Shown: positions 1 to 16,166 of the stretch, one piece after another
How the letters are laid out: each line of letters begins with the position of its first letter
Numbering within the stretch: position 1 is the first letter of the stretch
Source: a virus
Taxonomy: Duplodnaviria; Heunggongvirae; Uroviricota; Caudoviricetes
Length of the DNA: 16,707 nt
Strand: one strand, 5' to 3'
IMG/VR virus record: IMGVR_UViG_2547132418_000023
Notes under the pieces: model-generated
Told to the model about the DNA's origin: nothing
The model's database searches: none
What the model saw: only the letters and a program-made list of their open reading frames with translations
Made by a program: the position numbers and the translations under genes

Positions 1-765
1 ATGCGCGAAAGGGTATCGCAGCAGTTAAAAGAAATTGAACGGCGGTATGATGTGAAAGTATTGTACGCCTGTGAATCAGGGAGTCGCGGTTGGGGATTTG
101 CCTCGCCCGACAGCGACTACGATGTACGGTTTTTGTATGTTCACCCGCTGGAATGGTATCTGCGAGTAGAGTCACCGCGCGATGTTATCGAGCTGCCCAT
201 CGATGACGAGTTAGATGTTTCCGGTTGGGAGTGGCGTAAGGCGCTGGGATTATTGAAAGGCGCGAACCCGACGCTGATAGAATGGCTGGATTCTCCGGTG
301 GTCTATCAACAAGATGAAGAAACGATAACGGCGCTTAAGGCAATGGTCCCAACGTGGTTTTCTCCGCTGCGTGCGCGCTGGCATTACTATTCGATGGCGC
401 AGAAAAACTTCCGCGGATATTTGCAGGGCGATGAAGTTCGACTGAAAAAATACTTTTACGTGCTGCGCCCGCTGCTGGCCGTTCGTTGGGTTGAAGCGGG
501 AAAAGGTGTACCGCCAATGCGTTTTTCCGAATTGCTGGCGGGAAGTGAGTTGGATGCGGCATTACGCGCAGAAATAGATGAATTGCTGGAGCGTAAACAG
601 CGTGCGGGTGAAGCGGAATATGGACTGCGCCGTCCTTTGTTACATGCGTTTATTCGTGCGGAACTGGCGCGCGGGGAAATTCCTCCGCTGTTACCAGACA
701 GCCGGGAAGGGGACGTTAAAGAACTGGATAGTTTACTGTACCAGACGGTAATGCGCCGGGCGTGA
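1..765 (+). CDS. Nucleotidyltransferase-fold protein (Pol-beta superfamily), 254 aa; 5' end coincides with the window edge so the true start may lie upstream
   Basis: ATG at position 1, TGA at 763-765. N-terminal motif GSRGWGFASPDSDYDV fits the nucleotidyltransferase signature hG[GS]-x(9-13)-DhD. Convergent to the tail operon. Confidence 0.6.
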   Translation: MRERVSQQLKEIERRYDVKVLYACESGSRGWGFASPDSDYDVRFLYVHPLEWYLRVESPRDVIELPIDDELDVSGWEWRKALGLLKGANPTLIEWLDSPVVYQQDEETITALKAMVPTWFSPLRARWHYYSMAQKNFRGYLQGDEVRLKKYFYVLRPLLAVRWVEAGKGVPPMRFSELLAGSELDAALRAEIDELLERKQRAGEAEYGLRRPLLHAFIRAELARGEIPPLLPDSREGDVKELDSLLYQTVMRRA

Positions 766-781
766 AGCCCGGCGTTATTTT
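754..781 (+). terminator. Rho-independent terminator for the nucleotidyltransferase gene, sitting between convergent genes
   Basis: Perfect 8-bp stem CGCCGGGC (754-761) / GCCCGGCG (767-774), 5-nt loop GTGAA, followed by TTATTTT. The stop codon lies in the loop. No U-tract in the minus orientation. Confidence 0.55.
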
Positions 782-1235
782 ACGGCTGATATTGCCAGCT
801 ACTGACTAAAGCGTACAAGTGGTTTGGGGAATAGCGCCAACTCTCCTTTAATTGCAGAAATTCGGCACAAAATTCGCTGCAAAACAGGCGTTCACGCTGT
901 TCTTTATTACCGGTAATAATTCCAAGCGCGCCGCGCCAATCATATTTTTTGCCATCATGTTTATGGAAAAACGCTTCCACGTCCTGAAGGCTGGCCTGGA
1001 GCGGCAGCATATCCCACTTATCCGCTGGCAATGGCATTATCTTTCCGCGTACACCGCGATCGCGCAGTGATGCAGAGTAACAAAGGTAACTCTTTTCACC
1101 ATGCTTAACGGCTAATTCACAGTGGGAATAACTACCGCGCGTGATTTTACGGGTAAGCCAGTCAGCCAGTCGGGCAATACCACGGTGCTCTGTTCGGCCC
1201 TTATAACAAGCGAGCCAGACAGTGGTTTTACTCAT
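780..1235 (-). CDS. Putative permuted papain-like amidase (YiiX/YaeF-like, NlpC/P60 superfamily), 151 aa, translationally coupled to the upstream fibre chaperone gene
   Basis: ATG at 1233-1235 overlaps the upstream stop (ATGA). Motifs YSHCE, GKKYDW and FCSEFC resemble the His-before-Cys arrangement I recall for YiiX-family proteins. Recalled from memory, not searched. Confidence 0.4.
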   Translation of the reverse strand: MSKTTVWLACYKGRTEHRGIARLADWLTRKITRGSYSHCELAVKHGEKSYLCYSASLRDRGVRGKIMPLPADKWDMLPLQASLQDVEAFFHKHDGKKYDWRGALGIITGNKEQRERLFCSEFCAEFLQLKESWRYSPNHLYALVSSWQYQP

Positions 1236-1846
1236 GCTTGCCAGCCTGTTGAATAATCGTAGTCGAGCACCGCCTGAATATCGTCCAGAGCTTCCACCGC
1301 CGCGATATGGTGCTGGGCATTGGCGAACAGGCGCATATCGTGATCCATTGTTACCGATTCAAACTGGGCGGCGATCTCGTTGGTTAACTCGATCAGACCG
1401 TTATTTTTAGTTTTCCACATTAACCCTGGAGGGATTTTTTTCTCCGCTCCCATTTTTGTGAGTGAGAGCTGTTGGATACGGCTGTTTGTATCACTGTGGA
1501 AGTGATGGTTGTTGATGATGATGTAATCGGTTGTGACGTAATCCCGTTTGGATTTTATTCTTCTTATTATATCCGCTTTTATTTCTGAAATAAATTTAAG
1601 CATTGAATCTGTATCAACTATCCATTCTCCTTTTTTTAGTTTGTGAAATCTATCTGGTGGTGGCGTAGAGATAAAGGATAAATCTTCACAGTTAATCCAA
1701 ATTGGGATATTAGCTTTCGCATATGTCTGCCATTGCTGATCAGTTATTTCAACTAAATGTTCTACTTTAGGATAGTTGTAGTGTTCTGTATCGATCCAGT
1801 CCAGAACGATAAATGTTTCAGGATCAAAACAAGCATATTTTGTCAT
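1232..1846 (-). CDS. Putative tail fibre assembly/chaperone protein, 204 aa
   Basis: ATG at 1844-1846, immediately downstream of the fibre gene. Its 5' half shares the low GC (about 25-40%) of the fibre tip. It lacks the C-terminal EWP motif I recall for lambda/P2 Tfa, so the call is mainly positional. Confidence 0.5.
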   Translation of the reverse strand: MTKYACFDPETFIVLDWIDTEHYNYPKVEHLVEITDQQWQTYAKANIPIWINCEDLSFISTPPPDRFHKLKKGEWIVDTDSMLKFISEIKADIIRRIKSKRDYVTTDYIIINNHHFHSDTNSRIQQLSLTKMGAEKKIPPGLMWKTKNNGLIELTNEIAAQFESVTMDHDMRLFANAQHHIAAVEALDDIQAVLDYDYSTGWQA

Positions 1847-1852
1847 TTTTAA

Positions 1853-3847
1853 TTACCATGATATTTTTACGAAGCCAGAGGCACCTTTTGTTCCGCTAGT
1901 ATTGCCTAAATTTGTTAACTCATTATTTTTATATTGAAAAGGAGGTAAATAAGATCCCCCAGCTCCTCCAGAACCATAACCTGTTGCTGCTGTTGGCTTT
2001 GCCATTACTGCTTTTTTTCCACCATTACTTAGGTTTTCTGTAATAACAGTACCTGAAGCCCCTCCCTTTCCATATATAGAATTTTCACCATTCTTTCCAG
2101 GATAAAATTCTGCAGATGACGGTATTGCATTTGGTGGAGTACCTTTAGGATCGTCACTGAATTTTATATAAGGCTGCGTAGTGTTAGAGTGATAAATGTT
2201 ATATCCTCCATGGCCACCTTTTGCAGTTAGATTAGAAAACGAAGAGTCTCCACCATCAAAGCTTTTTTGTGTTGTCTCTGTTTTATCATACGAATACTTT
2301 ATTTGTGAAACAGGTGGATTGTTCCAAAAAGGACCTCCATTACCTCCAGCTCCGATCTTTACTGAAAAATGCTGGCCTGGTGCCACGTTTAAGTAATCAA
2401 CAATCAATTCTCCTGCATTACCTCCGCAGGCTTCATAATGTGATGATTGTGCTCCTCCGGCCCCCCCACCTCCGCCGCCCATAATTTCCACAAATAATAT
2501 TGTTACGCCCTCAGGAACTATAAATGTTCCATTTGTAGTATAAAAACTAGTGTGGGTATGATTAGCTGGAGCTGCAGTTTTTGCCTTATCCATTGCCGCC
2601 TTCACCGCGCTCGGTGTCGCCGCCTCCGTCGTACTGTTGCTATCCGTCGCGTTATTAAGCTTCACAATCCCTTTTTGCGACAGGGTGCCGTCTGGAACAC
2701 CCGTAATCTGTCCCCATGGGTGAGTATGGTTTCCCGCAGCCTTACTATTCGCCAGGTCATATGCCGCCTTCACCGCGCTCGGTGTCGCCGCCTCCGTCGT
2801 ACTGTTGCTATCCGTCGCGTTATTAAGCTTCACAATCCCTTTTTGCGACAGGGTGCCGTCTGGAACACCCGTAATCTGTCCCCATGGGTGAGTATGGTTT
2901 CCCGCAGCCTTACTATTCGCCAGGTCATATGCCGCCTTCACCGCGCTCGGTGTCGCCGCCTCCGTCGTACTGTTGCTATTGGTCGCGTTATTAAGTTTCA
3001 CAATCCCTTTTTGTGTCAGGGTACCGTCAGGAATACTCGTAATCTGCCCCCAGGGGTGCGTATGACTACCCGCAGCCTTACTATTCGCCAGGTCATACGC
3101 CGCCTTCACTGCGCTCGGTGTCGCCGCCTCCGTCGTACTGTTGCTGTCTGTCGCGTTATTAAGCTTCACAATCCCTTTTTGTGTCAGCGTACCATCTGGT
3201 ATATCAGTAATCTGACTCCAGGTATGACGATGATTTCGAGCCTCAATCATTGCCGCTTTCACCGCTTTTGGCGTAGCCGCTTTGGTTTCGTCATCACTGT
3301 CAGTGGCGTTACTCAACTGTGTAAAGCCTTTTTGCGTTAACGTAGCATCAGGATGATTAGTCGAACGCTCATGTTCATCCAGTTGTGAATCAACATAATC
3401 CCGTGTTGCCAGTACAATACTGGGGTCAACGGTGAGTGTTACCGCAGTCGTGTTGGAAACTTCCATAATCAGGCGAATGCAAACTTGCTTACCGCTGCCG
3501 CCGGGTAATAGTGGTTTATACGACTCCGGGAATTTACCGATAGCAATGAGTTCACCATCGGTATCAAAAACGCCGACTTCACGTACATACCAGCCGCCGA
3601 TATTTTCGGGCAGCACGAGTTCCGCAATTAACCAGTTAGGGTTATTGGGTGCAACTGTTAATGTATTTAAATCACCGCGCCATACTTCATGGCGTAATTT
3701 AGTTTGGCTGACGGTGGGTTCATAATATTGTCCTCCGCTGTCACCAACAGCCATTTTTTGTAGATGAAGCTGTTTTTTATCCGCCAGAGCATTGGCAATT
3801 TTTGCCATTCCCCTGTCGGTGAGTAGAGTATAAAACTCATTGTCCAT
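1853..3847 (-). CDS. Tail fibre protein, 664 aa: P2 gpH-like N-terminal domain, 56-aa repeat shaft, glycine-rich C-terminal tip
   Basis: ATG at 3845-3847 with GGAG 6 nt upstream. The N-terminus (EVWRGDLN, IAELVLPENIGGW, ESYKPLLPGGSG, ATRDYVDSQLDEHE, HPDATLTQKGFTQLSNATDS, ATPKAVKAA) matches my recollection of P2 gpH. Repeats of HTHPWGQIT..PDGTL.QKGIVKLNNATDSNSTTEAATPSAVKAAYDLANSKAAG follow. C-terminus carries GGGGGGAGG, GAGGNGG, GGHGG, GSGGAGGS motifs. Confidence 0.9.
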   Translation of the reverse strand: MDNEFYTLLTDRGMAKIANALADKKQLHLQKMAVGDSGGQYYEPTVSQTKLRHEVWRGDLNTLTVAPNNPNWLIAELVLPENIGGWYVREVGVFDTDGELIAIGKFPESYKPLLPGGSGKQVCIRLIMEVSNTTAVTLTVDPSIVLATRDYVDSQLDEHERSTNHPDATLTQKGFTQLSNATDSDDETKAATPKAVKAAMIEARNHRHTWSQITDIPDGTLTQKGIVKLNNATDSNSTTEAATPSAVKAAYDLANSKAAGSHTHPWGQITSIPDGTLTQKGIVKLNNATNSNSTTEAATPSAVKAAYDLANSKAAGNHTHPWGQITGVPDGTLSQKGIVKLNNATDSNSTTEAATPSAVKAAYDLANSKAAGNHTHPWGQITGVPDGTLSQKGIVKLNNATDSNSTTEAATPSAVKAAMDKAKTAAPANHTHTSFYTTNGTFIVPEGVTILFVEIMGGGGGGAGGAQSSHYEACGGNAGELIVDYLNVAPGQHFSVKIGAGGNGGPFWNNPPVSQIKYSYDKTETTQKSFDGGDSSFSNLTAKGGHGGYNIYHSNTTQPYIKFSDDPKGTPPNAIPSSAEFYPGKNGENSIYGKGGASGTVITENLSNGGKKAVMAKPTAATGYGSGGAGGSYLPPFQYKNNELTNLGNTSGTKGASGFVKISW
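2594..3265. repeat. Tandem 168-bp direct repeats (4 copies, units starting 2594, 2762, 2930, 3098; degenerate 5th about 3251-3340) inside the fibre gene
   Basis: TGCCGCCTTCACCGCGCTCGGTGTCGCCGCCTCCGTCGTACTGTTGC recurs at an exact 168-bp period. Copies 1 and 2 are nearly identical, later copies progressively diverged. In-frame, encoding 56-aa repeats. Confidence 0.85.
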
Positions 3848-3849
3848 AA

Positions 3850-4482
3850 TTACTCCGGGTAAATAGATGTAATTTCAAGGCTCCATTGCCCTGTTCCGTA
3901 ATAAATCGATGTGTTGTGCTGTACTTCCCGTATCTGGAAAGGTAAAACCGTCGTCAGTTCACCACCATAAAGTGCACAGCCAATAACAGGAATAGCACTT
4001 TGGTTAATGATCCAGACGATTAATGCTTCCAGTTTTGAACGTGTGTTTTTATATTCATGAATGAGTTCTACCAAATCATTGAAAAGGTTTTCATCCAGGC
4101 CTTTATCCACCAGCGCTATATCCACCTTAAAAAAATAAGCCCTTCCCCCATATTCAAACCATTCTGAAATAGTTCCTGGTAATGAGAGTATTTCCAGCAC
4201 CCGCCGCACCGCCCAAATTGTTCCTTTATATTTATGCAGTTCAATGGCTTGTTTAATTAACTCGCGTTTCTCCCGCTCATCGGTGGTAAATAACCAACCT
4301 TCCAGCCCCTGAACGTGAAATTGTTCTGCAAGGGCTGGTAATGCCGAAGCATCAACCTGGTCGATCAGATAAACCATCAACGCCGTCAGATCGAGTTGGG
4401 CAAAACGCTCGGCGGCGATATTTGCCAGAATCGAAAAACGCTCATCGCTGGCAAGCGGCGGCGGTGGCAGCAATTTATCCAT
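3850..4482 (-). CDS. Baseplate/tail protein, P2 gpI-like, about 210 aa
   Basis: The ORF-track start at 4497 is TTG; in-frame ATG at 4480-4482 (MDKLLPPPP...) overlaps the gpJ stop by 8 nt. Positioned between gpJ and the fibre as in P2 J-I-H. Confidence 0.7.
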   Translation of the reverse strand: MDKLLPPPPLASDERFSILANIAAERFAQLDLTALMVYLIDQVDASALPALAEQFHVQGLEGWLFTTDEREKRELIKQAIELHKYKGTIWAVRRVLEILSLPGTISEWFEYGGRAYFFKVDIALVDKGLDENLFNDLVELIHEYKNTRSKLEALIVWIINQSAIPVIGCALYGGELTTVLPFQIREVQHNTSIYYGTGQWSLEITSIYPE

Positions 4483-5590
4483 CGCTGACTCCGGCAATCG
4501 TGACGTCTATTGCGGTGCATTCCGCCCACTCATGCGCCTGCAAAATACGTTTTGTAGGCATATTCAGCGCAACGTCATAGACGCCATCGACCTGTAACAC
4601 TTTGATTATCTGGTTTGGCACAATGTCCTGCCCCAGATGTTTCTGCCGCTGTTGCGTCCAGAGGCTAATCGCTTTACGCGCTGCAGCCAGCGTTGTCTCC
4701 TGATCGGCGGTGGTAAACAGCGTTAGCTGCGCACGGATCTCATATGGCACTCGAAGAGCGCATTTCGCACTCACTTTGTCGGTCAGCGGACGTTTTTTCT
4801 CCTTGCTAACCTCCTGTTCAATTTGCGCGAGCAGTTCTATTCCCGGCAGTCCGTTCAGAGTTAGCGGGTAGATCTCCACGCAGCCTTCTGGCAATCCCTC
4901 GTCCGGCCCCAGTACTGCAACGTCAATAATCGACTGGCTAACAGAAAGCGTATGAAAGCGGTAGGCACCATAGCTGCCCGCATTACTAAAGCTTTCTGGT
5001 GCCAGTTGGATACGCTGGCGCAATGCGTCATCGCTCTCTTCACCGCAGCCGCCCGTTGACGCAGTCAGGTTGGTTACGTTGATGTCATAATGACCAATCC
5101 TGTCGACCAGTGCGCTAATTTGTGCAGGCTGCCAGCCGTTACCCTGTTCACCTGCTGCGAGGCTGGTGGCAGGAACGGCGATATGCAAACTCCTGGCCGG
5201 AAGCAGAACATCTTCATCGGTGGCGAACATCACGCTATCAGAGGCACTGGCCCGCGTTCCCTGGGGAATCAGGATATTGCTGGTATACGCGCTGACGACC
5301 GAAAACTGCAACGTCGTTTTTGCCGGCTGCGCAGGCAAACGGTGAACGCCCACCAACTCCCCTAAATAATCCAGCATTGGCGCGCGGGAATACGCGACCA
5401 GGTTCTGTTTCGCCGCTTCCTGAATGGCGATGCGTACAAGGTTTTCACGATAGGCAAACAGGTCGATGAGCAACCGCTCAGCCTGTGCCGGATAGAGTTT
5501 TTTACCGCTGGCATCTTCGTATTGCGCAATCATCTCACTGGTAATTTGCGCAGGATCGCGGTCAATAAAATTGGGTTCGGCTATCGCCAT
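4475..5590 (-). CDS. Baseplate J-like protein (P2 gpJ / T4 gp6 family), 371 aa
   Basis: ATG at 5588-5590 with GGAGGGG Shine-Dalgarno. Size and position after the gpW-like gene; start overlaps the gpW stop by 10 nt. Confidence 0.8.
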   Translation of the reverse strand: MAIAEPNFIDRDPAQITSEMIAQYEDASGKKLYPAQAERLLIDLFAYRENLVRIAIQEAAKQNLVAYSRAPMLDYLGELVGVHRLPAQPAKTTLQFSVVSAYTSNILIPQGTRASASDSVMFATDEDVLLPARSLHIAVPATSLAAGEQGNGWQPAQISALVDRIGHYDINVTNLTASTGGCGEESDDALRQRIQLAPESFSNAGSYGAYRFHTLSVSQSIIDVAVLGPDEGLPEGCVEIYPLTLNGLPGIELLAQIEQEVSKEKKRPLTDKVSAKCALRVPYEIRAQLTLFTTADQETTLAAARKAISLWTQQRQKHLGQDIVPNQIIKVLQVDGVYDVALNMPTKRILQAHEWAECTAIDVTIAGVSDG

Positions 5591-5940
5591 AACCCCTCCG
5601 TTGAGTTGATAACGCCGTCAGCGGCGCGCCATTGCACACGTAACGTCAGATGTTCGCCGTCGATTACTGGTGTCACCTTCAGCAACCGACAGCGCGGCTC
5701 CCACTGGCGGATGGCTTCCACCGACTCCCGTACCACATGCGGAATTGCCCGCTCGATGGGGTAATCGATGTAGTGCCACAAGTTGCTGCCAAACAGCGGT
5801 CTGTGGGGATCACTGCCGCGCGGTGTGCGCAGAATGATGTGTATTGCCTGGTGAATATCATCCAGTCCGCAGACGTATTCTTCAGGCCGCTGCAAGGCCG
5901 GTTGCCAGTGCAGCGTTGAGGGTCGTGTTTTTGTGTTCAT
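5581..5940 (-). CDS. Baseplate wedge protein, gpW / T4 gp25 family, 119 aa
   Basis: ATG at 5938-5940. Motifs DDIHQAIHIILRTPRGS and IRQWEPRCRLLKVT align with P2 gpW (ILRTPVGS, LKWEPRV) as I recall it. Confidence 0.85.
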   Translation of the reverse strand: MNTKTRPSTLHWQPALQRPEEYVCGLDDIHQAIHIILRTPRGSDPHRPLFGSNLWHYIDYPIERAIPHVVRESVEAIRQWEPRCRLLKVTPVIDGEHLTLRVQWRAADGVINSTEGLWR

Positions 5941-5999
5941 GAGGGTATTTTCGCCCTGAACGGGCTGTGGCGATATTAAAGCGATTTAGAAAACTGATT

Positions 6000-6033
6000 G
6001 ATTAAAAAGAGAAAACCCGCCATCAGGCGGGTT
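6000..6033 (-). terminator. Intrinsic terminator inside the tail operon, between the spike and gpW genes
   Basis: Perfect 8-bp stem AACCCGCC (6014-6021) / GGCGGGTT (6026-6033), loop ATCA. In mRNA sense it is followed by UUUUCUCUUUUUAAU, just downstream of the spike stop. Confidence 0.55.
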
Positions 6034-6038
6034 AAACG

Positions 6039-6740
6039 TCAGTGTGTATGGTGGTTGGAGTTGCCACCGCTGTCCTGCAATGCGCCGCTGGCCTGAACGT
6101 TGCCGATCACGTTGACATTGCCAGTTATCGTGGCGGCGTTACCGATGCCTCCACTTCCTGCCATCCCGCCAAGCCAGGTGAGTTTTTTCATTACCGTGAC
6201 ATTGCCAGTAAAGGTGCTCATGGGCGCATCTACCGTCACTGCTGCCGCTTTAACATCGACCTTAGTGGCGTCGATGCTGACATCGGTCGCTTTAATATCG
6301 ACGGTATCGGAAGTCACGGTGACCTGTTGGGCTTTAATCTCAACGTTGGGTGATGTCAGGCGGGTACTGTCGATAACCTCAATCACGATTTTCTCGATAC
6401 CGCCGTTAATCGTCAGCTGGTGGGTGCTGCGGTCATATTCAAACGCTGCGCCATCAGAAAACTGGACGTAACGTTTATCGCGCGAGGCCACAGGCGCGGT
6501 GTCAACCGTAGAATAAACTGCGCCCAGCACCACGCCATCTTCACCGTTATTGTCCAGCAGAACTTCCACTTGCTCGCCCATATCCGGTAGCCAGTAGTCT
6601 TTATTGTCCTGGGAATTGCGTTGAAGTACCGCAAGCCAGTTGCTCTTCAGATTGTCACACTCCGGAAGCGTGACTCGCACCCGAACGCTGGTTTCGTCAA
6701 TATCGCTGATAATCCCCGTTTGACGGGTTACTCCTTTCAT
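6039..6740 (-). CDS. Baseplate central spike, P2 gpV-like, 233 aa
   Basis: ATG at 6738-6740 with AAGGAGG Shine-Dalgarno. N-terminal OB-like region, then beta-helix-like repeats (VTVTSDTVDIKATDVSIDATKVDVKAAAVTVDA). C-terminus ends NSNHHTH, an HxH apex motif of the kind that binds metal in P2-type spikes. Confidence 0.8.
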   Translation of the reverse strand: MKGVTRQTGIISDIDETSVRVRVTLPECDNLKSNWLAVLQRNSQDNKDYWLPDMGEQVEVLLDNNGEDGVVLGAVYSTVDTAPVASRDKRYVQFSDGAAFEYDRSTHQLTINGGIEKIVIEVIDSTRLTSPNVEIKAQQVTVTSDTVDIKATDVSIDATKVDVKAAAVTVDAPMSTFTGNVTVMKKLTWLGGMAGSGGIGNAATITGNVNVIGNVQASGALQDSGGNSNHHTH

Positions 6741-6749
6741 ATTTCCTCC

Positions 6750-7790
6750 TTACTGGCTGGTCGCTGGCCCGCGTGACACGTCGATTTCAGTGGTATAGCC
6801 GCTGCGCACAAAACTGTGAGTCGATTTATCAATCAGCCACTGACCGGAAAGCACGCCAAAATCGGTCAGTTCAATTTTATTGCCCGCCGTCAGTTCCGGG
6901 CAGCCCATCATCCTGAGCGTTCCGGTTTGTTGATATTCGTTGTGGCTGTCGAGCGCGGCGTTGGCCTTTGCCTGTGCCGCGCCAACGTCCGGCGCCCGAC
7001 TGTTCAGTTTTAGCGTGTCGGCACTGGTGCCGACTCCACGGGCAGACGGTTTTTGCTGGCTGTCGTGGGTGTAGATAACCAGTTCTTTTTTCTTACTATT
7101 TTGATGCTGTACGGTGGCATTTTTGTAGATACGGTTAATGGTATCTTTGAAGGTGAAATGCGAAACGTCTTTGCGGTCGATCGTTTTTACCGGCGCCAGG
7201 CAGCGCAGCGTGGGTAAATGCGAAAAAATCAGTTCTTTGGTGGTCACCTTTACCGCATAGCCATATTCGCTGGCCAGGCGCTTGAGAAATCCGACATCGG
7301 TTTCACCATACTGCGTTACCCGGTCGATGGTGAGCGGCTCGATTTTGCCCACCAGTTTCAGACCGTGCGTTTGGGCGATACGGCTGGCGATAGCCGAAAG
7401 CGTCGTTTCTTCAAAGCCCTGGCTGTTACGGGTACGCAGCGCCTGATTGACGGAAGTGGCGATGCCATCAATATTTACCGTAGAAGGTGGCGCTGAAATA
7501 TCAATTTTATCAATAATATACTGACCACAATCGAGCAGCTTTTCCCCCTGATAACCCATATGCAGCGCCAGCGTATCGCCTTTGCCGGGATACCACTCTT
7601 TTATCCAGCGTCCATCGGTGTCATCCAGTGTAATCGCGATGGTATCTGACTCGTTTTTGATGCTGTCGTGGTAACTGATGCTGGTGACATAGGGTGTGAT
7701 GTCATAAGTGATATCTTTATGCCCATACCAGAGGGTAAAAATGGGCGTGAGTGTGGCAAAGACGCCACCAGTTACGCTTATCTCAGCCAT
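6750..7790 (-). CDS. Baseplate hub, P2 gpD-like (late control gene D family), 346 aa
   Basis: ATG at 7788-7790. Sits upstream of the spike and after gpX as in the T-U-X-D block. The C-terminal region (TGTLRMMGCPELTAGNKIELTDFGVLSGQWLIDKSTHSF) resembles gpD. Confidence 0.8.
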   Translation of the reverse strand: MAEISVTGGVFATLTPIFTLWYGHKDITYDITPYVTSISYHDSIKNESDTIAITLDDTDGRWIKEWYPGKGDTLALHMGYQGEKLLDCGQYIIDKIDISAPPSTVNIDGIATSVNQALRTRNSQGFEETTLSAIASRIAQTHGLKLVGKIEPLTIDRVTQYGETDVGFLKRLASEYGYAVKVTTKELIFSHLPTLRCLAPVKTIDRKDVSHFTFKDTINRIYKNATVQHQNSKKKELVIYTHDSQQKPSARGVGTSADTLKLNSRAPDVGAAQAKANAALDSHNEYQQTGTLRMMGCPELTAGNKIELTDFGVLSGQWLIDKSTHSFVRSGYTTEIDVSRGPATSQ

Positions 7791-7987
7791 GGTGGGATCT
7801 CCGATAAGGTTTTATTGACGGAAATGACCGGAATAATGAGCTGAATACCGGAAGGCAGTACCGGGTAAATGGCGACATGTGGATTGGCGACGATTATGCG
7901 TTCATAAGCCAGCGCATCACCGTAGTAATGCCATGCCAGATTATCCCAGCGTTCGCCGTCGGTGGTGATATGTTCAAGGTATCGCAT
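7778..7987 (-). CDS. Tail protein X (P2 gpX-like, LysM-like), about 69 aa
   Basis: The ORF-track start at 7990 is GTG; ATG at 7985-7987 overlaps the upstream stop (TGATG). Motif WDNLAWHYYGD...ANPHV...LPSGIQLIIP resembles P2 gpX. Confidence 0.75.
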   Translation of the reverse strand: MRYLEHITTDGERWDNLAWHYYGDALAYERIIVANPHVAIYPVLPSGIQLIIPVISVNKTLSEIPPWLR

Positions 7988-8940
7988 CACCAGATCCTCG
8001 TAATGGTCGCGGCAGCAAGCTGGCTCACTGTGGGAGTGGTTTGTTGTACCGTTGTTCGTGCCTGATCAACCAACGTTGCGGCTTTATCAAACGTCGCTTC
8101 GGCGATGTCGCTGGTAATGTCGTCGAAAAGCGCCTGAGCATGGTCAACCAGTGTACTGGCGTCATTGGCGCAGTCCCGGATACCTGGCATGTTACCCAGT
8201 AAAGTTTTAATCTGCGCCGACAACGCTTTTGGGAGTCCTGCCAGCGTTTGCAGATCCATTGGCTGTTTAAACAGGGTTTCGATGGCGTCGATTGTCTTTT
8301 TCAATGACGTAATTATCTTTTCACACTTTTCTTTTAACACTTTGGCCTCTTTAATCATTGCTTTCACTTTTGCCACCGTTTTTTTAATATCTTCAATGGC
8401 TTGTGTCAGTTCATCCAGCATCTCTTTGGCCTTACGCATACCTTCTTCGATGGCGTTTAATATCTGATCAAACCAGGACTCCACCATGTCGGGAAAATCG
8501 CTCGCCTTTTCCTCAATGTTAGGCTCCTGGGTGGTAATCGCCGGAGGTAAAAGTGGATTTTTAGGATCGCCGGTGTACTCCTGGAGCGACATCGTTCCGT
8601 TTTGGGCAATCACATTGCCCCAGGGATCGGTGTGCTGGTGGGTGGCGGTTAGCTCCGTAATTACAAACCAGCCGCGATAATCGCCATTGCCAAATACCAG
8701 TGCCATCGCCTTGTGAGCAAGCATGGCTTCACGCAGTCGATTAAGCTCTGTTGTGGGCTGGCAAAACTGGCTGTGCAGGGAAAATTCCAGCGCCAGCATA
8801 TCCAGCTTATCGCCAATAAACTGCACACCGGGTTTGCCTTCTATACGGGCATGTGTGGCGTAATCCACGCCCATTGTGCTTTTAAAGCCGTCCCAGAATG
8901 CGACAACCTTAAATTCAATCTCTCCTAAAACGGCATACAT
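7987..8940 (-). CDS. gpU-like tail protein with a roughly 165-aa helical C-terminal extension, 317 aa
   Basis: ATG at 8938-8940 overlaps the tape-measure stop (TGATG). N-terminal GDYRGWFVITELTATHQHTDPWGNV resembles P2 gpU (GWFVITSISRQH). The C-terminal half is K/E/A-rich and heptad-like (EEGMRKAKEMLDELTQAIEDIKKTVAKVKAMIKEAKVLKEK). Confidence 0.7.
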   Translation of the reverse strand: MYAVLGEIEFKVVAFWDGFKSTMGVDYATHARIEGKPGVQFIGDKLDMLALEFSLHSQFCQPTTELNRLREAMLAHKAMALVFGNGDYRGWFVITELTATHQHTDPWGNVIAQNGTMSLQEYTGDPKNPLLPPAITTQEPNIEEKASDFPDMVESWFDQILNAIEEGMRKAKEMLDELTQAIEDIKKTVAKVKAMIKEAKVLKEKCEKIITSLKKTIDAIETLFKQPMDLQTLAGLPKALSAQIKTLLGNMPGIRDCANDASTLVDHAQALFDDITSDIAEATFDKAATLVDQARTTVQQTTPTVSQLAAATITRIW

Positions 8941-11315
8941 CAGGCATACCCCCGGCGCTGTTGTTGCGCCATTACGTCGTTAATCATTCTTTCAAGTTCG
9001 CGTTTACTCATCGTCAACACGTTCTGAATCTCTTTAGTGGTGTTTTGTCCGTTACCCTGCACGGTAATCTGTGGCGAAAAATTCACCTGAACTTTTCCAG
9101 AGGAACGGGAAGGTAGCGTCGCCGGTTTGGTTACGGATTTACCAGGTAAAGAGGCCAATGCGGGTTTGGCGGCTGTATTTTTTGCCGCAGGTGCCGATGG
9201 CGGCGTTGTCGTTTTACTGGATGGCGCGAGTTGTTTCCCCACCGGAGGCGTTAAAATCGCACCGGCAACGCCTGGAACAACGCTCGCGGGGGAGACGGAT
9301 GCGGTATTAGTCGTGCTTGTAATAGCTGTAGCCGATCCTTCTGTACTAATACCCATCGTGGTTTTTAGCCAGTCTGGGATGACGTTTTTGACCTGATCAA
9401 TAATGCCTTTCAGAGCGGGGAAGGCATTCATTATGCCGTCGGCCAGGCTAGCCAGAAGATTGCTGCCGAACTCGCTAAAACTCGCAGGCATTTCAACACC
9501 AAACCAATTCATCACACTGGAAAAGGCGCTATAGAACAACTCCAGCGGCGACCAGTCGAGAATTAACCGACAAATTTCTGCAATGCCGCCGTCAAAGGCC
9601 GTGGTGATACGTTGCCAGATGGTAGAAAAGAACCTGGAGATAGGCTCCCAGTTGCGATAAATCAGATAAGCAGCGCCCGCAATCGCAGTGATGACCAGAC
9701 CAATGGGATTCATCAATAAAACCCTACCCAACCAGAAGACGGTCTGACCTGCCTGTTTCAGTGCGCCAATCAGGCCACGACCAAGCAGTTGCGTTAGCCA
9801 TTTTGCACCGCCACCCAATGACTTAACCGCTGATAGCATCTTACTTGCCCCGCCTGTGAGTGCCAGACTTGCCCTGACTTTCAGGAAGATATCGACCAGA
9901 CGAATAAACGGCGAGGCGATGAAGTTCGCGCCCAGTTTTAAAACATTCAGCGCGCCGTTAAACAGCCAAATCGCCCCGACGATTTTCGCAATGTTTTGCA
10001 CCAGTGCCGGGTGCTCACGTAGCCAGGCGCTGAACTGGCGAACAACCGGCGTAAGGCTTTGTGCCAGCTCGCCAATCAGCGGCATTAATTGCAAGCCAAT
10101 GCTGAGCCATAAATCATTTAACGCCAGCTGTAACGCTTTAGTCTGTTCAATGGGCGAGGCCATTTGCGCAGAAAAGTCGGCATCAATCAGATTCTTGCTG
10201 CTGGCTTGCATGGCAGAGGCTTTTAACTGGCGATATTCCTCCATATTCGCCAGCATAGGTGCCAGGAATTCCACAGTTTGCGCATCGCCGAACATTTCGC
10301 CCAGATTAAATTGCGTCACCATCGATTGCAGCGCATTGCTGCGAGCAGATAAATCTTCAATCTGCATAGTGCGTTTGAAGGTGCCGAGGATCGCCGGATT
10401 CATCTTCTCAAGCTGCATTTGCACGATATGAGTCATGGCTTCGCTAACACCCATACCGTTTTGCTGATGCTCAAGCAGAGAGCCTTGCAGATCAACGCCC
10501 TGGCTGGCGAACCAGTTATCGGTTTTTTTCGAAAAGGTGGTTTGCAGAAAGTGGTCGAAATTCTCCGCCGCCGCACTGGCGCTGGCCCCGTTTTTCATGG
10601 CGATCTGCATGATGGCGGTCAGTTCAGCCATACCTTCCAGACCCTGAGCGCCGGTTTTACCTGCAAATTTCTCTATCCACTGCGTTTGTTCGGCAACGGC
10701 AGGCCCACCGCTTTTGCTAATGCCATACATCATGTTTTGCGTGGCGTGGAAATTTTCCGGGGCAATATTCAATCGATCATGAGTCGCGAGCGCGGCATTC
10801 GCCCACGTTTCAGCACTTTCGCGCGTGGCGGTGGCAGCTTTGGCGATCTCCGGCATATAACGGTTGAGATCCTGCATCGACGACAAATTGCCTTCGATCA
10901 GCGTTTGGGCTGCGTTCTGTAAGGTGGTCTGCTGCTGGTTAAAATCCATGCTCCAGTCGCGCAGATTAAGGCTGAGCGTCTCGCGGGTTGTAGCATTCAT
11001 CCCACCTTTGGTCGCCATATTGACCATGTTGTCCTGGAACTCATATGGCAACTTCCAGTCGGGGGCTTCAACATTGAATACCTTGCTAAATTGCCCGGCA
11101 AATGTTTGGGTTTTCTCCATTAGATCAGCGCGGTTCCGGCTATTTTCCTCCAGGCGGAGAGCAGAATCGGCAAGTTGCTGCGTTAGTTTGATTACTGTCG
11201 CTTGCTGAGAAGAGAGAGCTAACAAAGTTCTGGCGTTGAGTGAGCCGTAACGGGCTATTGCCTGCGTCAACGTCTCATTACGCGCCTGAAGCTGGGTAAT
11301 AATATCGTTGGCCAA
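8940..11315 (-). CDS. Tail tape measure protein, 791 aa
   Basis: Long, mostly alpha-helical, hydrophobic central segments, Pro/Ala/Ser/Thr-rich stretch near the C-terminus, located after the chaperone gene. Start is TTG at 11313-11315 (in-frame stop at 11328-11330, no nearby ATG), preceded by AAAGAGAAA. Confidence 0.8.
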   Translation of the reverse strand: MANDIITQLQARNETLTQAIARYGSLNARTLLALSSQQATVIKLTQQLADSALRLEENSRNRADLMEKTQTFAGQFSKVFNVEAPDWKLPYEFQDNMVNMATKGGMNATTRETLSLNLRDWSMDFNQQQTTLQNAAQTLIEGNLSSMQDLNRYMPEIAKAATATRESAETWANAALATHDRLNIAPENFHATQNMMYGISKSGGPAVAEQTQWIEKFAGKTGAQGLEGMAELTAIMQIAMKNGASASAAAENFDHFLQTTFSKKTDNWFASQGVDLQGSLLEHQQNGMGVSEAMTHIVQMQLEKMNPAILGTFKRTMQIEDLSARSNALQSMVTQFNLGEMFGDAQTVEFLAPMLANMEEYRQLKASAMQASSKNLIDADFSAQMASPIEQTKALQLALNDLWLSIGLQLMPLIGELAQSLTPVVRQFSAWLREHPALVQNIAKIVGAIWLFNGALNVLKLGANFIASPFIRLVDIFLKVRASLALTGGASKMLSAVKSLGGGAKWLTQLLGRGLIGALKQAGQTVFWLGRVLLMNPIGLVITAIAGAAYLIYRNWEPISRFFSTIWQRITTAFDGGIAEICRLILDWSPLELFYSAFSSVMNWFGVEMPASFSEFGSNLLASLADGIMNAFPALKGIIDQVKNVIPDWLKTTMGISTEGSATAITSTTNTASVSPASVVPGVAGAILTPPVGKQLAPSSKTTTPPSAPAAKNTAAKPALASLPGKSVTKPATLPSRSSGKVQVNFSPQITVQGNGQNTTKEIQNVLTMSKRELERMINDVMAQQQRRGYA

Positions 11316-11416
11316 AATTGTTTCTCTTTAATTATTGATAATGGCCCACTGGTTATTTTTCTAAAAAAGGGGCTGGGAAGAAATAAACCTGGCGGGCTTT
11401 GAAGAACTCGCAGACA

Positions 11417-11822
11417 TCAGGTCTGGGAGCCATATTCGATCTTTATTTGGTCGCTGGCTTCATCCAGCCAGTTGCTAAAGTCATCTATGGTGAGCGCGTC
11501 TATCTCACTGGGTGGAAAGCGAAACCATCTCGCCAGTAGCGCCATTGCCTGCCATAGCTGGGGAGGATTCTGTAACCACGGTAAGCATGGATTGAAATCG
11601 TTTCTGCAATGCCTGGTAATCCAGCAAATCCATTTCAGCTAAATCTTCTGGCACCAGTCCGGTCATCGCCGCCATTAGCGGTTCATCCCACTCTTCGGGT
11701 TTTTCGCTGATCCGGCGCGCGTTGCGCATATCTTTTACTTTCAGGCGACGTAATTGCAGCGAGTCGATAGTATTTCCTGCTGCCGACGTAAATGGGAACT
11801 GTAAGATATAATGCTCTTTCAT
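11417..11822 (-). CDS. Putative frameshift-extended chaperone (E+E'-like) produced by a +1/-2 shift near the 3' end of the chaperone gene
   Basis: The +1 frame is open from 11638 to a TGA at 11417-11419 and encodes protein-like sequence past the chaperone stop (...WFRFPPSEIDALTIDDFSNWLDEASDQIKIEYGSQT). The -1 frame stops after 8 codons. Slip site not identified. Confidence 0.4.
11505..11822 (-). CDS. Tail assembly chaperone (P2 gpE-like), 105 aa
   Basis: ATG at 11820-11822 with AAGGA Shine-Dalgarno. Position between tube and tape measure. DLAEMDLLDYQALQKRF resembles the gpE family. Confidence 0.75.
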   Translation of the reverse strand: MKEHYILQFPFTSAAGNTIDSLQLRRLKVKDMRNARRISEKPEEWDEPLMAAMTGLVPEDLAEMDLLDYQALQKRFQSMLTVVTESSPAMAGNGATGEMVSLSTQ

Positions 11823-11848
11823 TTTGTATCCTTATTTATGTTGCGAAG

Positions 11849-11868
11849 TTCGGGGCCGTAGCCCCGAA
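11849..11868 (-). other. Intergenic RNA stem-loop between tube and chaperone genes, no U-tract
   Basis: Perfect 8-bp inverted repeat TTCGGGGC (11849-11856) / GCCCCGAA (11861-11868), loop CGTA, in the 47-nt tube-chaperone gap. Confidence 0.5.
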
Positions 11869-11872
11869 TAAT

Positions 11873-12397
11873 TTAGCCACCGATGTTATTGCGATAGGTA
11901 CTTAATTGATCCACGCCGTTAACCCGAAAAATATTCGCCATATAATCAAGTTCAAGCAGCGTTTCACCATCGACCACTTGTTTAATATAAGTACAACCAA
12001 AGGCGCTGCTGAATTCCGGGTTTTCATTCTGTTTAAATGTGCCCAAGGGATTCTTTTTAAACATCACGGTTAAATGTGTCACTAACGCTAATTGATTCGC
12101 TTTCCCCTGGGAGTTATAGCAATCAATACTGGAGCGGCACTGTAATGCTACTGCCTGCCACGGGTTTGCCGTTTTACGCATTACGTCCTGATAAAAGGAG
12201 TTCCATTTAATTTCCCCCTCCAGTTTATCGAAACCAGCCGGGAGTTCGATTTTACCGACCATACCCAGTGCTTTATGCTCTTGCATAATTAAACTGACAT
12301 CCGGCAATTTAATTTCGGTTGCACGACCTAAAAGATTATTACCATCGAGATAAATATTGGCGTTGGTAATACGGTTAATTTGAATTTTTCCAGCCAT
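11873..12397 (-). CDS. Tail tube protein (P2 FII-like), 174 aa
   Basis: ATG at 12395-12397 overlaps the sheath stop (TAATG). C-terminus CTYIKQVVDGETLLELDYMANIFRVNGVDQLSTYRNNIGG closely matches P2 FII as I recall it. Confidence 0.85.
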   Translation of the reverse strand: MAGKIQINRITNANIYLDGNNLLGRATEIKLPDVSLIMQEHKALGMVGKIELPAGFDKLEGEIKWNSFYQDVMRKTANPWQAVALQCRSSIDCYNSQGKANQLALVTHLTVMFKKNPLGTFKQNENPEFSSAFGCTYIKQVVDGETLLELDYMANIFRVNGVDQLSTYRNNIGG

Positions 12398-13821
12398 TAG
12401 CTATTGCTCTCCAGAGAGACTAAATATTCAGAAGTAATTTCAGTTTCAAACGTCAGACGTTCCAGCGGCGGCGGCGGGGTGAATTTATAGCTAAGCAATA
12501 AATGCCCGGCGCTGAGTTCAGCCGGTGAATTTCGCGCCGGATCGTACCAGCACTCAAAGCCAAGCAGTGCGCCGTCGGCAATCAGTTTTCGGCCCCAGGT
12601 ATTTACCGATTCGGTCAGCGCGTCAATAAGAGCCTGATTAATCGGCATATCAATATACTGCTGACTGAAATAACGGATTGACTCATTAATTACATCGCCT
12701 GTCCGGCGAACGTTTTCAAAGTTACGCATATGGGTCACGGTAGGCCATGCCGCTGTGCGGTTGCCCCACAAGCGCAGACCAGAACCGTAACTATTGAAAA
12801 TAGTGGTAATGCCGTTTTCGTTGAGCTGATTCACTTCGCTTTGTGGATCATCAATCATTGCAGAAAGCGAACGTTCAATACCGGTAATACCCTGAATTTC
12901 CTGGTTTGAGTTGCTCCACCAGAAACCTTTTTCGAGGTCTACTTTGGCACGTAGCCCGGCAGCGCGCGAAGAGAGTGGTTCGAGAACTTCCTGGTTAGTG
13001 ATGCCATCGTAAACTTTGACGTGTGGGTAACATAAACGCACACGATCAGAGCTGGTATTGAAGTTGATAGCCCCTTGCGAACCGCGTCCAGCCAATACCT
13101 GCTGGAATGTCGTCCCAATCGGAGCATCAATGTAGGTAAGCGCACCGAGTTTTTCCGCTTGTGCAATCAGCTCAGTAGTTACTGATTTTTGCGTACAAAA
13201 CACGGGAGCAAGCAGGATTTTGGCGTAGAAACCGTACAGGTTATAGGTGTCCTGAAGGAGTTTCATCCCCGTGCGGTCGCCTGCGGTATTTACGGCACCG
13301 ATAATATCGGCTGCGGTGACCTTTGTAGGGTCGCACCAGGAATAATAGGCGCAAACTTTCGCACCAGGAGGAATGTCGGCTCCTTTACGGGTAATTATGC
13401 CTGTTTGTTCATCTACGCTAAATGCTGCGGTGTTAAAGGTTGATGAATTTGATGAAGAGGGCTTTAGTACCACGTTACGCACATTGCGGTGAGCGAGCTT
13501 CGCCTGGTTGTTAGCGTCAAAAGTGATACTCTCATTGCTGATGTTGGAGCCATGTTTTGCCGGATCCAGCACGTTAATCACCACCACCGTACCGGCACCG
13601 TGGTCATAAATCGCCTTCAGTGCCTGTGGGATCGTAAAGTTAGCCTGAGTCGAGCCAAACTGCGCAGCATCGCTTTCAGAAAGGCATAATGTTGGTTTAT
13701 TTACCGGACCGCAGGGGGCCGTACCGATTAAAGCGATGACGGCGGATTTTACCGCTTTAACCGGACGCGGGCCGGTTTCAATTTCAATGGTTTCTACACC
13801 GTGCAGGTAATTAGCTGCCAT
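12397..13821 (-). CDS. Tail sheath protein (P2 FI-like), about 474 aa
   Basis: The ORF-track start at 13827 is TTG; ATG at 13819-13821 is preceded by GAGGA. C-terminal region (LRLWGNRTAAWP..., ECWYDP..., LSYKFTPPPPLERLTFE) matches sheath proteins. Confidence 0.9.
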   Translation of the reverse strand: MAANYLHGVETIEIETGPRPVKAVKSAVIALIGTAPCGPVNKPTLCLSESDAAQFGSTQANFTIPQALKAIYDHGAGTVVVINVLDPAKHGSNISNESITFDANNQAKLAHRNVRNVVLKPSSSNSSTFNTAAFSVDEQTGIITRKGADIPPGAKVCAYYSWCDPTKVTAADIIGAVNTAGDRTGMKLLQDTYNLYGFYAKILLAPVFCTQKSVTTELIAQAEKLGALTYIDAPIGTTFQQVLAGRGSQGAINFNTSSDRVRLCYPHVKVYDGITNQEVLEPLSSRAAGLRAKVDLEKGFWWSNSNQEIQGITGIERSLSAMIDDPQSEVNQLNENGITTIFNSYGSGLRLWGNRTAAWPTVTHMRNFENVRRTGDVINESIRYFSQQYIDMPINQALIDALTESVNTWGRKLIADGALLGFECWYDPARNSPAELSAGHLLLSYKFTPPPPLERLTFETEITSEYLVSLESNS

Positions 13822-14008
13822 GTACAATTTCCTCTACGTTATTTTGTTCTTCCTGAGTGATGACAGGAGTCAGATGATTGCGGGCAATCATGGTCATGAC
13901 CCACTCGTTGTCTTCTGGCAGATCAATTTCACTGTTCGGCCACAATAAGATTTCTTGTCCATCGGCAAGGGTGACGCCGCTTGCCGGGCCGTTGTAGATG
14001 TATTTCAT
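13811..14008 (-). CDS. Small conserved tail-module protein (Mu gp38-like), 65 aa
   Basis: ATG at 14006-14008 overlaps the upstream stop (ATGA). Position directly before the sheath, as in Mu-like phages. Family assignment from memory. Confidence 0.4.
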   Translation of the reverse strand: MKYIYNGPASGVTLADGQEILLWPNSEIDLPEDNEWVMTMIARNHLTPVITQEEQNNVEEIVHGS

Positions 14009-14460
14009 TCAGTTTCCTCGTAGTTAACTTCCGTAAGCAGGGGAAGATCCGTGCTTTCCTGTTCAGCGATAAACAGCGAGCTGGTCGCCATTTCCAGGAT
14101 GTAGCGGCAGAAACCGCCGCTCTCACCCGTATTAATTTCTTTTTCAAGCCAAAGCAGACGATCGCAATCAGGAAGCTGAAGGCCGCCCAATGCGCTGCGT
14201 ATGCAATCAAGTGCGTTTAACGCGTCACAATTTTTGTCAACAATAACGGTGGCGGTTAAGCGGAGTATTTGCTGTTGCACGATGGCATCACTGCTTTCGG
14301 GTGTGGTAAAGACAGAACCGCTATAATTAATAATCACTGCAACTTGTTGTGTCTGTGGAATATATTTCTGGGCATCCGTAGATGAAATAAATATATCCAT
14401 TTCAGGATGCCGATCACGTAATTTGACCATGACATAATTCATTGCAGATAAAATTTTCAT
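14005..14460 (-). CDS. Putative tail completion/terminator protein (Mu gp37-like), 151 aa
   Basis: ATG at 14458-14460. First gene of the tail operon after the terminator. VAVIINYSGSVF-type motif. Family assignment from memory. Confidence 0.45.
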   Translation of the reverse strand: MKILSAMNYVMVKLRDRHPEMDIFISSTDAQKYIPQTQQVAVIINYSGSVFTTPESSDAIVQQQILRLTATVIVDKNCDALNALDCIRSALGGLQLPDCDRLLWLEKEINTGESGGFCRYILEMATSSLFIAEQESTDLPLLTEVNYEETE

Positions 14461-14564
14461 ATGAGGTGTACCTTAATTACCGCTCACTTCGTTATCGTTG
14501 AGATGTATTATGAAGCAGTGAAGGTGAAGAATCTTTTAATGTGATTTAGAGAAAAAATTGAATG

Positions 14565-14601
14565 GCTATAAAAAATCCCCACACTTACGTAAAGGTGGGG
14601 A
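14565..14601 (-). terminator. Intrinsic terminator separating the lysis cassette from the tail operon
   Basis: 7-bp stem TCCCCAC (14576-14582) / GTGGGGA (14595-14601) with a partly self-complementary loop. In mRNA sense followed by UUUUUUAUAGCC, just after the 14607 stop. Confidence 0.5.
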
Positions 14602-14606
14602 TGTAT

Positions 14607-14921
14607 TTAATAACTGCCACGTTGTAACAGCTCGATTTTGCTATATAAGGCATCCAGCTTTGCTTCTAATACTGCTTGCCCACGAAGATAATCTTCTCTG
14701 CGGACATAATGCAGCGGAAGCTCGGCACGAAATTCAAGAAACTCTCTTTCCAGTTTCGACCAACTTGTTTCTGATTCCCTGCGGGCATTTTCCAGAGACT
14801 CAAAACGCTCATTAAGTCGTTTTTCAATTTGCGCTAACAGCAGTTTTCCGGCAGCAAACATTAATCCAACGAAGGAAAGCATAAGGGAGATCACTTCCCA
14901 AAAATCGATACTGAGTTTCAT
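14607..14921 (-). CDS. Membrane-anchored coiled-coil protein, possible lysis accessory (i-spanin-like), 104 aa
   Basis: ATG at 14919-14921 with GAGGGG Shine-Dalgarno. N-terminal hydrophobic helix (VISLMLSFVGLMFAAGKLLLA) then charged heptad-like sequence. Last gene of the lysis cassette. Confidence 0.5.
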   Translation of the reverse strand: MKLSIDFWEVISLMLSFVGLMFAAGKLLLAQIEKRLNERFESLENARRESETSWSKLEREFLEFRAELPLHYVRREDYLRGQAVLEAKLDALYSKIELLQRGSY

Positions 14922-14933
14922 CGGCCCCTCTGA

Positions 14934-15539
14934 TTAGTGAAGACAGCTTGCCTGTCCCCAGAGTAAATAGCGGGCAGCGTGTTGATAGAGAATCATCTTT
15001 GGATAGCGACGATTTTCTCGCCAGTTCGCGGCGCTGCGCCCGGCGTTGACTTGCTCGACATGACCAAACCAGCGAGTGGCATCTAACCCTTTGGATGCAG
15101 CCAGTTTTTTATCCCGGTTAACCCACCCCTGACCGCCGTTATAGGCGCTTAGGGTAAACGCCATACGCTGACAGTCATTTTGCGCAGAGATGTTTTTCCA
15201 CAAATGCTGGTCATATTGCACCAGCGCGCGAATCGCCCAGGTTGGGTTATACGGTTTGTTTTCACGCAATTGTGGATACAACTGGCTTATCCATGTCGCA
15301 GTAGCAGGCATAAATTGCGCCATACCTTGTGCGCCAACGGGGGAACGTACCATTGGCTGCCAGGCGGACTCCTGGTGTAATTGCCCGGCAAAGTCGGCCA
15401 CTGGGGCATTCAGCCCCCAGACTTCTCGAGCTGTACGAATTAGTTCGTTTCGCCATGCCAGAGAGGCTCGCGGCGGTTCAGAGGCGTTAAGCGGGAAAAG
15501 AACGAAAATAATCATAGACGCGATATATTTCAGCCACAT
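14934..15539 (-). CDS. Endolysin candidate: lytic transglycosylase (SLT-like) with N-terminal signal/SAR sequence, about 201 aa
   Basis: The ORF-track start at 15617 is TTG; ATG at 15537-15539 (MWLKYIASMIIFVLFPLNAS...) lies 2 nt after the holin-like stop with AGGG upstream. HQESAWQP has the catalytic Glu-Ser context; GAQGMAQFMP and AYNGG are SLT-like. Confidence 0.7.
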   Translation of the reverse strand: MWLKYIASMIIFVLFPLNASEPPRASLAWRNELIRTAREVWGLNAPVADFAGQLHQESAWQPMVRSPVGAQGMAQFMPATATWISQLYPQLRENKPYNPTWAIRALVQYDQHLWKNISAQNDCQRMAFTLSAYNGGQGWVNRDKKLAASKGLDATRWFGHVEQVNAGRSAANWRENRRYPKMILYQHAARYLLWGQASCLH

Positions 15540-15541
15540 CA

Positions 15542-15829: not shown

Positions 15830-16125
15830 ACGATATCTCCTGATAAGTGAGCGTTTAGTGTCGTCAGAACCCGCCAGTGAAGAATGAAAAAAGCTTTAAT
15901 AAATAAGTTTAAAAAATAGATTCTCTATAAATGAACATGCCCGCTAATAAATCGACTCAGCAATTAAAGAGCAAACGGTGACCTGGCGAATAAGCGCGTC
16001 ATTATGCAGGGAAAAGATGATGGTGGATCGTAGGAATAGTCGATAGTTATTTGATTTTTAAAGTTTGTTTAAGAAAGTCAGCGACTGTGAGGGAAACGAT
16101 CTTTTTACACTACAGGTAAAAATAA

Positions 16126-16145: not shown

Positions 16146-16166
16146 TCGTGTAAAATGATACTCCTG

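Follow-up and report, generated by a model that had tools for sequence, protein, structure and literature searches.

The window analyzed here is a stretch of 16,707 nucleotides from the IMG/VR virus record IMGVR_UViG_2547132418_000023 (Caudoviricetes), and its positions 780-16707 constitute a headless contractile-tail and lysis cluster, a chromosomal island of Escherichia coli that is 99-100% identical to strains such as S10. The cluster includes a tail fiber gene whose 664-residue product consists of an N-terminal baseplate-attachment domain, a shaft of five fiber repeats, and a glycine-rich C-terminal tip, and which is followed by a gene for a DUF4376 protein and by an open reading frame (ORF) for a 151-residue companion (Table 1). 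The fiber repeats, each 56 residues long, are encoded by a tandem array of a 168-nucleotide unit at 2594-3214 (3.7 copies, 93% match by TRF). The window fiber has one repeat more than the otherwise near-identical RefSeq copies of 608 residues, and thus shaft length varies through repeat number. A first-pass annotation of this DNA had read the tip as an adhesin domain resembling gp38 of T2/S16-type phages, unusual in being fused to the fiber. We find instead that it is a member of an already described class of fiber tips, that of cyanophage Pam3 gp24 (Pfam PF21722, Gly_rich_2), and that the remaining likeness to gp38 is a resemblance in design.

Table 1. Features of the fiber locus and of its surroundings in the window (res, residues of the encoded protein)
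Feature	Position	Strand	Basis or remark
Tail fiber gene, 664 residues	1853..3847	-	ORF list; Pfam PF12571, five PF03406, PF21722; RefSeq 'tail fiber protein'
N-terminal baseplate-attachment domain, res 1-150	3398..3847	-	PF12571 tail-collar fiber domain, Pfam E 7e-61; kept in all alleles
Shaft, res 151-436	2540..3397	-	Five PF03406 fiber repeats, Pfam E 6e-89
C-terminal tip, res 437-664 (228 residues)	1856..2539	-	PF21722 Gly_rich_2; TNF-like β-sandwich with predicted glycine-motif lattice
Glycine motif GGGGGGAGG, res 457-465	2453..2479	-	Aligned with GGGGAGG of Pam3 gp24
Glycine motif GAGGNGG, res 499-505	2333..2353	-	Conserved in E. coli and Salmonella
Variable loop A, res 506-531	2255..2332	-	Insertion between two glycine motifs; 58% of positions differ; pLDDT 64-77; absent from Pam3 gp24
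Glycine motif GGHGG, res 544-548	2204..2218	-	
Variable loop B, res 553-577	2117..2191	-	64% of positions differ; pLDDT 56-71; insertion versus Pam3 gp24
Glycine motif GKGGASG, res 593-599	2051..2071	-	
Glycine motif GSGGAGGS, res 625-632	1952..1975	-	Aligned with WGGGGPGGS of Pam3 gp24
Loop C, res 633-648	1904..1951	-	Insertion versus Pam3 gp24; pLDDT 59; 25% of positions differ from Salmonella
Exchange cassette of low G+C content (34-42%): fiber tip and N-terminal half of DUF4376 gene	1350..2550	.	Composition profile; coincides with allele-divergent stretch
DUF4376 protein, 204 residues, putative fiber-assembly chaperone	1232..1846	-	Pfam PF14301; three-allele alignment
Companion ORF, 151 residues	780..1235	-	Overlaps DUF4376 stop; follows DUF4376 in all alleles inspected from E. 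coli and from Salmonella (where it is STM4198)
Nucleotidyltransferase-domain gene	1-765	+	Truncated by window start
Holin end of cluster	15542-15829	-	
Mor-family transcription activator	16366-16707	+	Divergent from holin end

All five glycine-rich motifs quoted in the first-pass annotation were located in the C-terminus of the fiber ORF. The domain had been placed at 1856-2480; its lower end stands, but the upper end falls about 20 residues short, as the domain starts at residue 437 (nucleotide 2539) and opens with two β-strands (TTNGTFIVPEGVTILFVEIM) ahead of the first poly-Gly run. Glycine makes up 44 of the 228 tip residues (19.3%) compared to 30 of the 436 in the remaining protein (6.9%; binomial P = 5e-10). 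The stretch encoding the tip is richer in A+T than any other part of the gene (G+C content 40.5% versus 50.2%), and the enrichment is therefore not explained by base composition. Two plus-strand ORFs lying over the tip (2196..2396 and 2269..2484) are unsupported and were taken as antisense by-products.

The tip matches PF21722 over residues 437-663 and profile positions 1-224 of 226, scoring 41.2 bits within the full protein and 49.0 bits as an isolated domain (cutoff, 24.3 bits). When the last 228 residues are scanned by themselves, PF21722 is the only Pfam match (E 1e-12); no NCBIfam model is hit by the fiber, the tip, the DUF4376 protein, or the 151-residue ORF. In two earlier large protein searches, glycine words and nearly identical Salmonella proteins crowded the results; diversity came from querying 1.84 billion representative proteins with a single sequence. 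At E ≤0.001, this search yielded 96 relatives of the tip, most of which align over its first 70 residues, while many share the terminal G.G.V.IEW strand. In an alignment of 40 tip sequences (A2), whose mean column identity is 15%, five glycines are invariant and 13 further ones are at least 90% conserved. When the tip was compared by tblastn with 50,697 phage records, no match was obtained, which we take as a true absence and not a failure of the tool, because the one Salmonella contig in that collection bears a collar-type allele.

A glycine-rich stretch may also be mere low-complexity sequence, disordered and without a fold, in which the motif pattern has arisen by chance. The high composition bias reported by HMMER and the way in which glycine runs hamper BLAST-type searches would be in keeping with such an origin, but the enrichment in glycine within an AT-rich stretch speaks against it, and the retention of glycine columns across so diverse an alignment, together with the structural model and fold comparison described below, already refutes it; we assign it next to no probability.

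The structural comparisons lead to the same family. Used as a profile against the sequences of the PDB, A2 retrieved the Pam3 fiber across the whole domain (E 6e-16) and gp33 of phage Bxb1 (E 1.7e-7), both in full-length alignments that are collinear through the non-glycine motifs VP.GV, V.PG...V.VG.GG, and G.G.V.I.W. A phmmer search of the PDB sequences with the tip alone produced chance matches only, and Pam3 gp24 itself scores 23.8 bits on PF21722, slightly below the cutoff. With A2 as input, AlphaFold2 gave a tip model with a predicted local distance difference test score (pLDDT) of 87.9 and a predicted template modeling score (pTM) of 0.84, in which low confidence is confined to three loops. 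The fold-comparison score of this model is 14.7 with the Pam3 fiber (7ypx_A; 2.1 Å over 152 residues, 26% identity), 10.2 with Bxb1 gp33, 10.1 with Bxb1 gp29, about 7 with the glycine-rich region of ALK (four entries), and 2.3-3.8 with ligands of the TNF family; Foldseek ranked the same proteins at the top. The model has the architecture that defines the PF21722 class, a TNF-like β-sandwich continuous with fingers of glycine motifs, and DSSP assigns the glycine segments to neither helix nor strand. In keeping with the first-pass annotation, the glycine motifs thus belong to a folded fiber-tip domain and not to a linker.

What is known of the relatives gives the model its detail. Pam3 gp24 (PDB 7YPX, 7YFW) comprises a helical N-terminus, a TNF-like domain, and a glycine-rich domain of 12 motifs in a four-layer lattice, in which the TNF-like strands extend into six loops carrying two glycine-rich motifs each, held together by main-chain hydrogen bonds; its variable distal tip was proposed to bind the receptor, and the tip is clasped by a chaperone, gp25, which is a separate protein (PMC9608196). 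It is a minimal fiber of 280 residues, whereas the E. coli tip is mounted on a P2/Mu-type collar domain and five repeats. Its glycine-rich domain contains 39% glycine compared to 19% in the E. coli domain, which has loops A-C in addition, and the accessory protein is gp25 in Pam3 but a DUF4376 protein in E. coli. Bxb1 gp33, the 'tail wing brush', and a subdomain of the gp29 tail spike (PDB 9D93) come from the siphovirus tail tip of an actinobacterial phage. The former is small and consists almost wholly of a PF21722-type tip domain, its proposed partner being the lipid-rich mycobacterial envelope, and the mycobacteriophage versions have been termed 'brush domains' (PMC13243795). The ligand-binding region of ALK and LTK, likewise TNF-like plus glycine-rich (PDB 7LRZ, 7LIR, 7NX1), belongs to receptor tyrosine kinases of animals, whose ligand is a cytokine, and its 13-23% identity to the tip does not imply membership of the class. 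On a gut-metagenome contig (L009, positions 4001-5107), we also observed a 368-residue Gly_rich_2 protein encoded three genes downstream of a gpJ-like central tail fiber gene, with no DUF4376 gene nearby; given the gpJ-like neighbor, the tip domain is apparently carried on siphovirus-type tails as well.

The possibility that the tip is instead a gp38-type adhesin of the T2/S16 class, homologous to those proteins, fused to the fiber, and binding an outer-membrane protein through hypervariable segments between the glycine motifs, has some appeal. S16/T2-type gp38 (PDB 6F45, PF05268) is located at the long tail fiber's distal end and shares the layout of conserved glycine motifs alternating with variable segments, which we also find in the tip. 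The authors of the Pam3 structure compared gp24 with S16 gp38 and saw a local match of 52 Cα atoms (PMC9608196), and both the fiber-tip class and gp38 have been treated as polyglycine/polyproline-II lattices (PMC9608196, PMC13243192), with Pam3, Bxb1, and S16 put together as polyproline-II bundles (PMC13243192). However, the tip matches neither PF05268 (GP38) nor PF21721 (Gp38_N) at E up to 10, whereas S16 gp38, included as positive control (L004:16824-17573), matches both (E 4e-73 and 1e-19) and does not match PF21722. Aligning the A2 profile with S16 gp38 by hhalign gave a probability of 6.7% over 11 poly-Gly columns only, the search of the PDB sequences with A2 found no gp38 at E up to 1, and the fold searches detected no similarity to the gp38 structure 6F45. 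Because the tip fails in all of these profile, profile-profile, and PDB-sequence comparisons, and has no fold match either, we reject membership of the gp38 family.

The architectures differ as well. The TNF-like sandwich carried by Pam3 gp24, Bxb1 gp33 and gp29, and the ALK/LTK region, which are the best matches, is absent from gp38, whose middle domain is a β-helix according to the Pam3 paper (PMC9608196). S16 gp38 is a separate capping protein with its own N-terminal attachment domain, and is described as monomeric; the tip is the C-terminus of the fiber polypeptide, which has no such attachment domain. Nor is fusion to the fiber an oddity in this class, since it is the usual arrangement in Pam3 gp24, in the Salmonella orthologues, and in PF21722. 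A homologous gp38 adhesin is accordingly improbable in our judgment. The earlier comparison holds insofar as a glycine lattice is indicated in the tip and in its relative Pam3 gp24; of the two outcomes named beforehand as telling against a gp38-like tip, a lack of detectable gp38 similarity was found and a lack of a glycine lattice was not.

Differences between homologous tips fall between the glycine motifs. We compared 37 distinct tips, namely the E. coli tip and its Salmonella orthologues (64-69% identity), and scored differences against the Salmonella majority. Within the glycine motifs, 10-21% of positions differ, and variation clusters in loops A and B (Table 1), which bears out the suggestion that the segments between the motifs vary; the accompanying suggestion that they determine receptor specificity is a prediction that we consider most likely correct, its predicted carriers being loops A and B, perhaps also C, the non-glycine insertions that separate paired motifs. 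Along the chain, an outgoing glycine motif precedes each of loops A and C and a returning one follows it, and loop B is bordered by short strands flanked by glycines; by topology, such an order would put the loops at a finger's far end.

Between strains, the tip and the N-terminal half of the DUF4376 gene are swapped as one unit. The tip allele of the window was found in 40 of 5,426 complete E. coli genomes, always at ≥99% identity. Other strains have alternative tips at the same site: strain CH4796 a divergent, shorter Gly_rich_2 domain, and strain IAI39 a Collar domain (PF07484). The break point between alleles is the end of the last shaft repeat, where the likeness to the window fiber stops. 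On the other side, the C-terminal ~100 residues of the DUF4376 protein are identical in all three E. coli alleles, whereas the N-terminal ~95 (about nucleotides 1562-1846) change with the tip. Such co-exchange within a single low-G+C tract, in a window with a mean G+C content of 49%, is what one would expect if a receptor-binding tip travelled with its cognate assembly factor, and fibers and chaperones of R-pyocins vary in a matching manner. The IAI39 version of the DUF4376 protein additionally bears a Caudo_TAP fiber-assembly domain, and some database sources name the protein 'phage tail fiber assembly'; similarity to Pam3 gp25 was not detectable. The 151-residue ORF has no Pfam match, does not resemble Pam3 gp26, a protein of the same length, and gave one strong PHROG match, phrog_1128, whose 'enoyl-CoA hydratase-like' label is dubious.

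The orthologous site in Salmonella also has several alleles. Its fiber gene STM4200 varies enough to be used as a Typhimurium-specific target for the polymerase chain reaction (PCR and quantitative PCR; PMC6201931). In serovar Infantis SARB27 (L006, positions 2231-3691), we observed a different, shorter fiber of 486 residues followed by a gene for 233 residues, as in E. coli IAI39. Given the Typhimurium marker and the distinct Infantis fiber, fiber alleles track serovars.

Based on these results, we consider it probable that the tip is a distal receptor-binding domain that combines a TNF-like sandwich with a lattice of glycine fingers, carries its specificity in the loops, and folds with the help of the DUF4376 protein. 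In this model, residues 437-664 would form the fiber's distal end and contact the receptor. The strands of the β-sandwich would run on into hairpin 'fingers' of extended glycine-rich motifs, and these would pack by main-chain hydrogen bonds into a lattice in which the glycine motifs provide the conserved scaffold, the fold being that of Pam3 gp24, of Bxb1 gp33 and gp29, and of the region by which ALK/LTK bind their ligand. The DUF4376 protein, encoded directly downstream, would probably assist folding of the tip as a chaperone. By analogy to Pam3 gp24, the fiber is presumably trimeric and, as the tip belongs to each fiber chain, would carry three tip modules at its end. Binding to a receptor on the target cell is likewise suggested by analogy, and lipopolysaccharide (LPS) is our best guess for the receptor class, because TFP_Y, the fiber of Klebsiella phage SCNJ1-Y and a homologue of Pam3 gp24, binds LPS and has host-range mutations in its glycine-rich domain (PMC12671077). 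TFP_Y is the only functional evidence for this class of fiber tips; it comes from a different type of phage, has a different N-terminal part, and is likened to the window protein by way of Pam3 gp24.

Three points weigh against this model. For the matches to Pam3 and Bxb1, HMMER flagged a large bias in composition. The polyglycine-II angles, the packing of extended glycine motifs about 5 Å apart, the geometry of the lattice, and the positions of loops A-C are predicted from the superposition on Pam3 gp24 and from the chain topology. Finally, the tip does not vary among its 40 E. coli carriers, and hence there is no diversification within the allele. Invariance in 40 of 40 carriers would also suit a tip that is mainly a structural or assembly module, for example, a C-terminal trimerization knob or a folding nucleus, with recognition left to the shaft repeats or to another tail protein. 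We regard this as unlikely, because trimerization of the Pam3 fiber relies mainly on the N-terminal helices, with only loose contacts between the tip domains (PMC9608196), because the part that is exchanged is the tip with its cognate partner gene and not the shaft, and because the host-range mutations of the Klebsiella homologue fall in the same domain (PMC12671077). A deeper but weaker reading of the receptor-binding tip is that a single ancestral glycine-lattice module may have given rise to it, to the gp38 adhesins, and to the ligand-binding region of ALK/LTK in animals.

The island that carries the fiber gene occurs in 196 of the 5,426 complete E. coli genomes; in the RefSeq annotation it is flanked by yjbD and lysC, and its Salmonella counterpart includes STM4198-STM4204. 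RefSeq gives the order as holin, lytic transglycosylase, and membrane protein, followed by sheath, tube, tape measure, and baseplate, then the fiber gene, the DUF4376 gene, and the 151-residue ORF, with a divergent activator of the Mor family. No capsid, portal, terminase, or integrase genes, nor any others for head, packaging, replication, or integration, are present in the RefSeq annotation of the island, and the ORFs of the window are concordant with this. A set of tail and lysis genes without these functions marks the cluster as one of the kind that encodes R-type tailocins, and the island may be such a tailocin. In the literature on PF21722, on a Salmonella or E. coli tailocin at the yjbD-lysC site, and on the STM42xx genes, we found no functional study and no report of a particle or of killing.

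A gap of ~540 nucleotides separates the Mor-family gene from the holin end of the cluster, and its product is a plausible switch for the island. At the other end, the nucleotidyltransferase-domain gene and an adjacent gene of the slipin family (L001, positions 12642-14566) travel with the island in each of the three E. coli strains examined, and both may be island cargo instead of core chromosome.

A precedent for such a cluster is the R-type pyocin with the Prf15 fiber and the Prf16 chaperone, a headless contractile-tail cluster in which the C-terminus of the fiber and the chaperone co-vary between strains and set the killing spectrum. It differs in having another tip fold and a P2-like origin in Pseudomonas. 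More speculatively, the island could be a functional, so far undescribed R-type tailocin of the Mu/P2-like kind, with its killing spectrum set by the 1-kb cassette and with the enterobacteria-specific loops A and B, at the ends of the glycine fingers, binding the LPS of rival strains; we put this forward as a tentative proposal that is less likely to be right than wrong.

For annotation, the end of the fiber should be described as a Gly_rich_2 receptor-binding tip of the Pam3 gp24 type and not as a gp38-like adhesin. With this label, experiments would be aimed at LPS and a trivalent tip instead of at outer-membrane proteins and a monovalent cap. In practical terms the gain is modest. Loops A and B, and likewise the 1-kb cassette of tip plus putative chaperone, are defined targets for retargeting, and exchangeable tips of glycine-rich and collar types are naturally available in the island on a single conserved shaft. 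Of greater interest is the headless tail-and-lysis cluster itself, which is common to E. coli and Salmonella and could be an unstudied tailocin with swappable tips.

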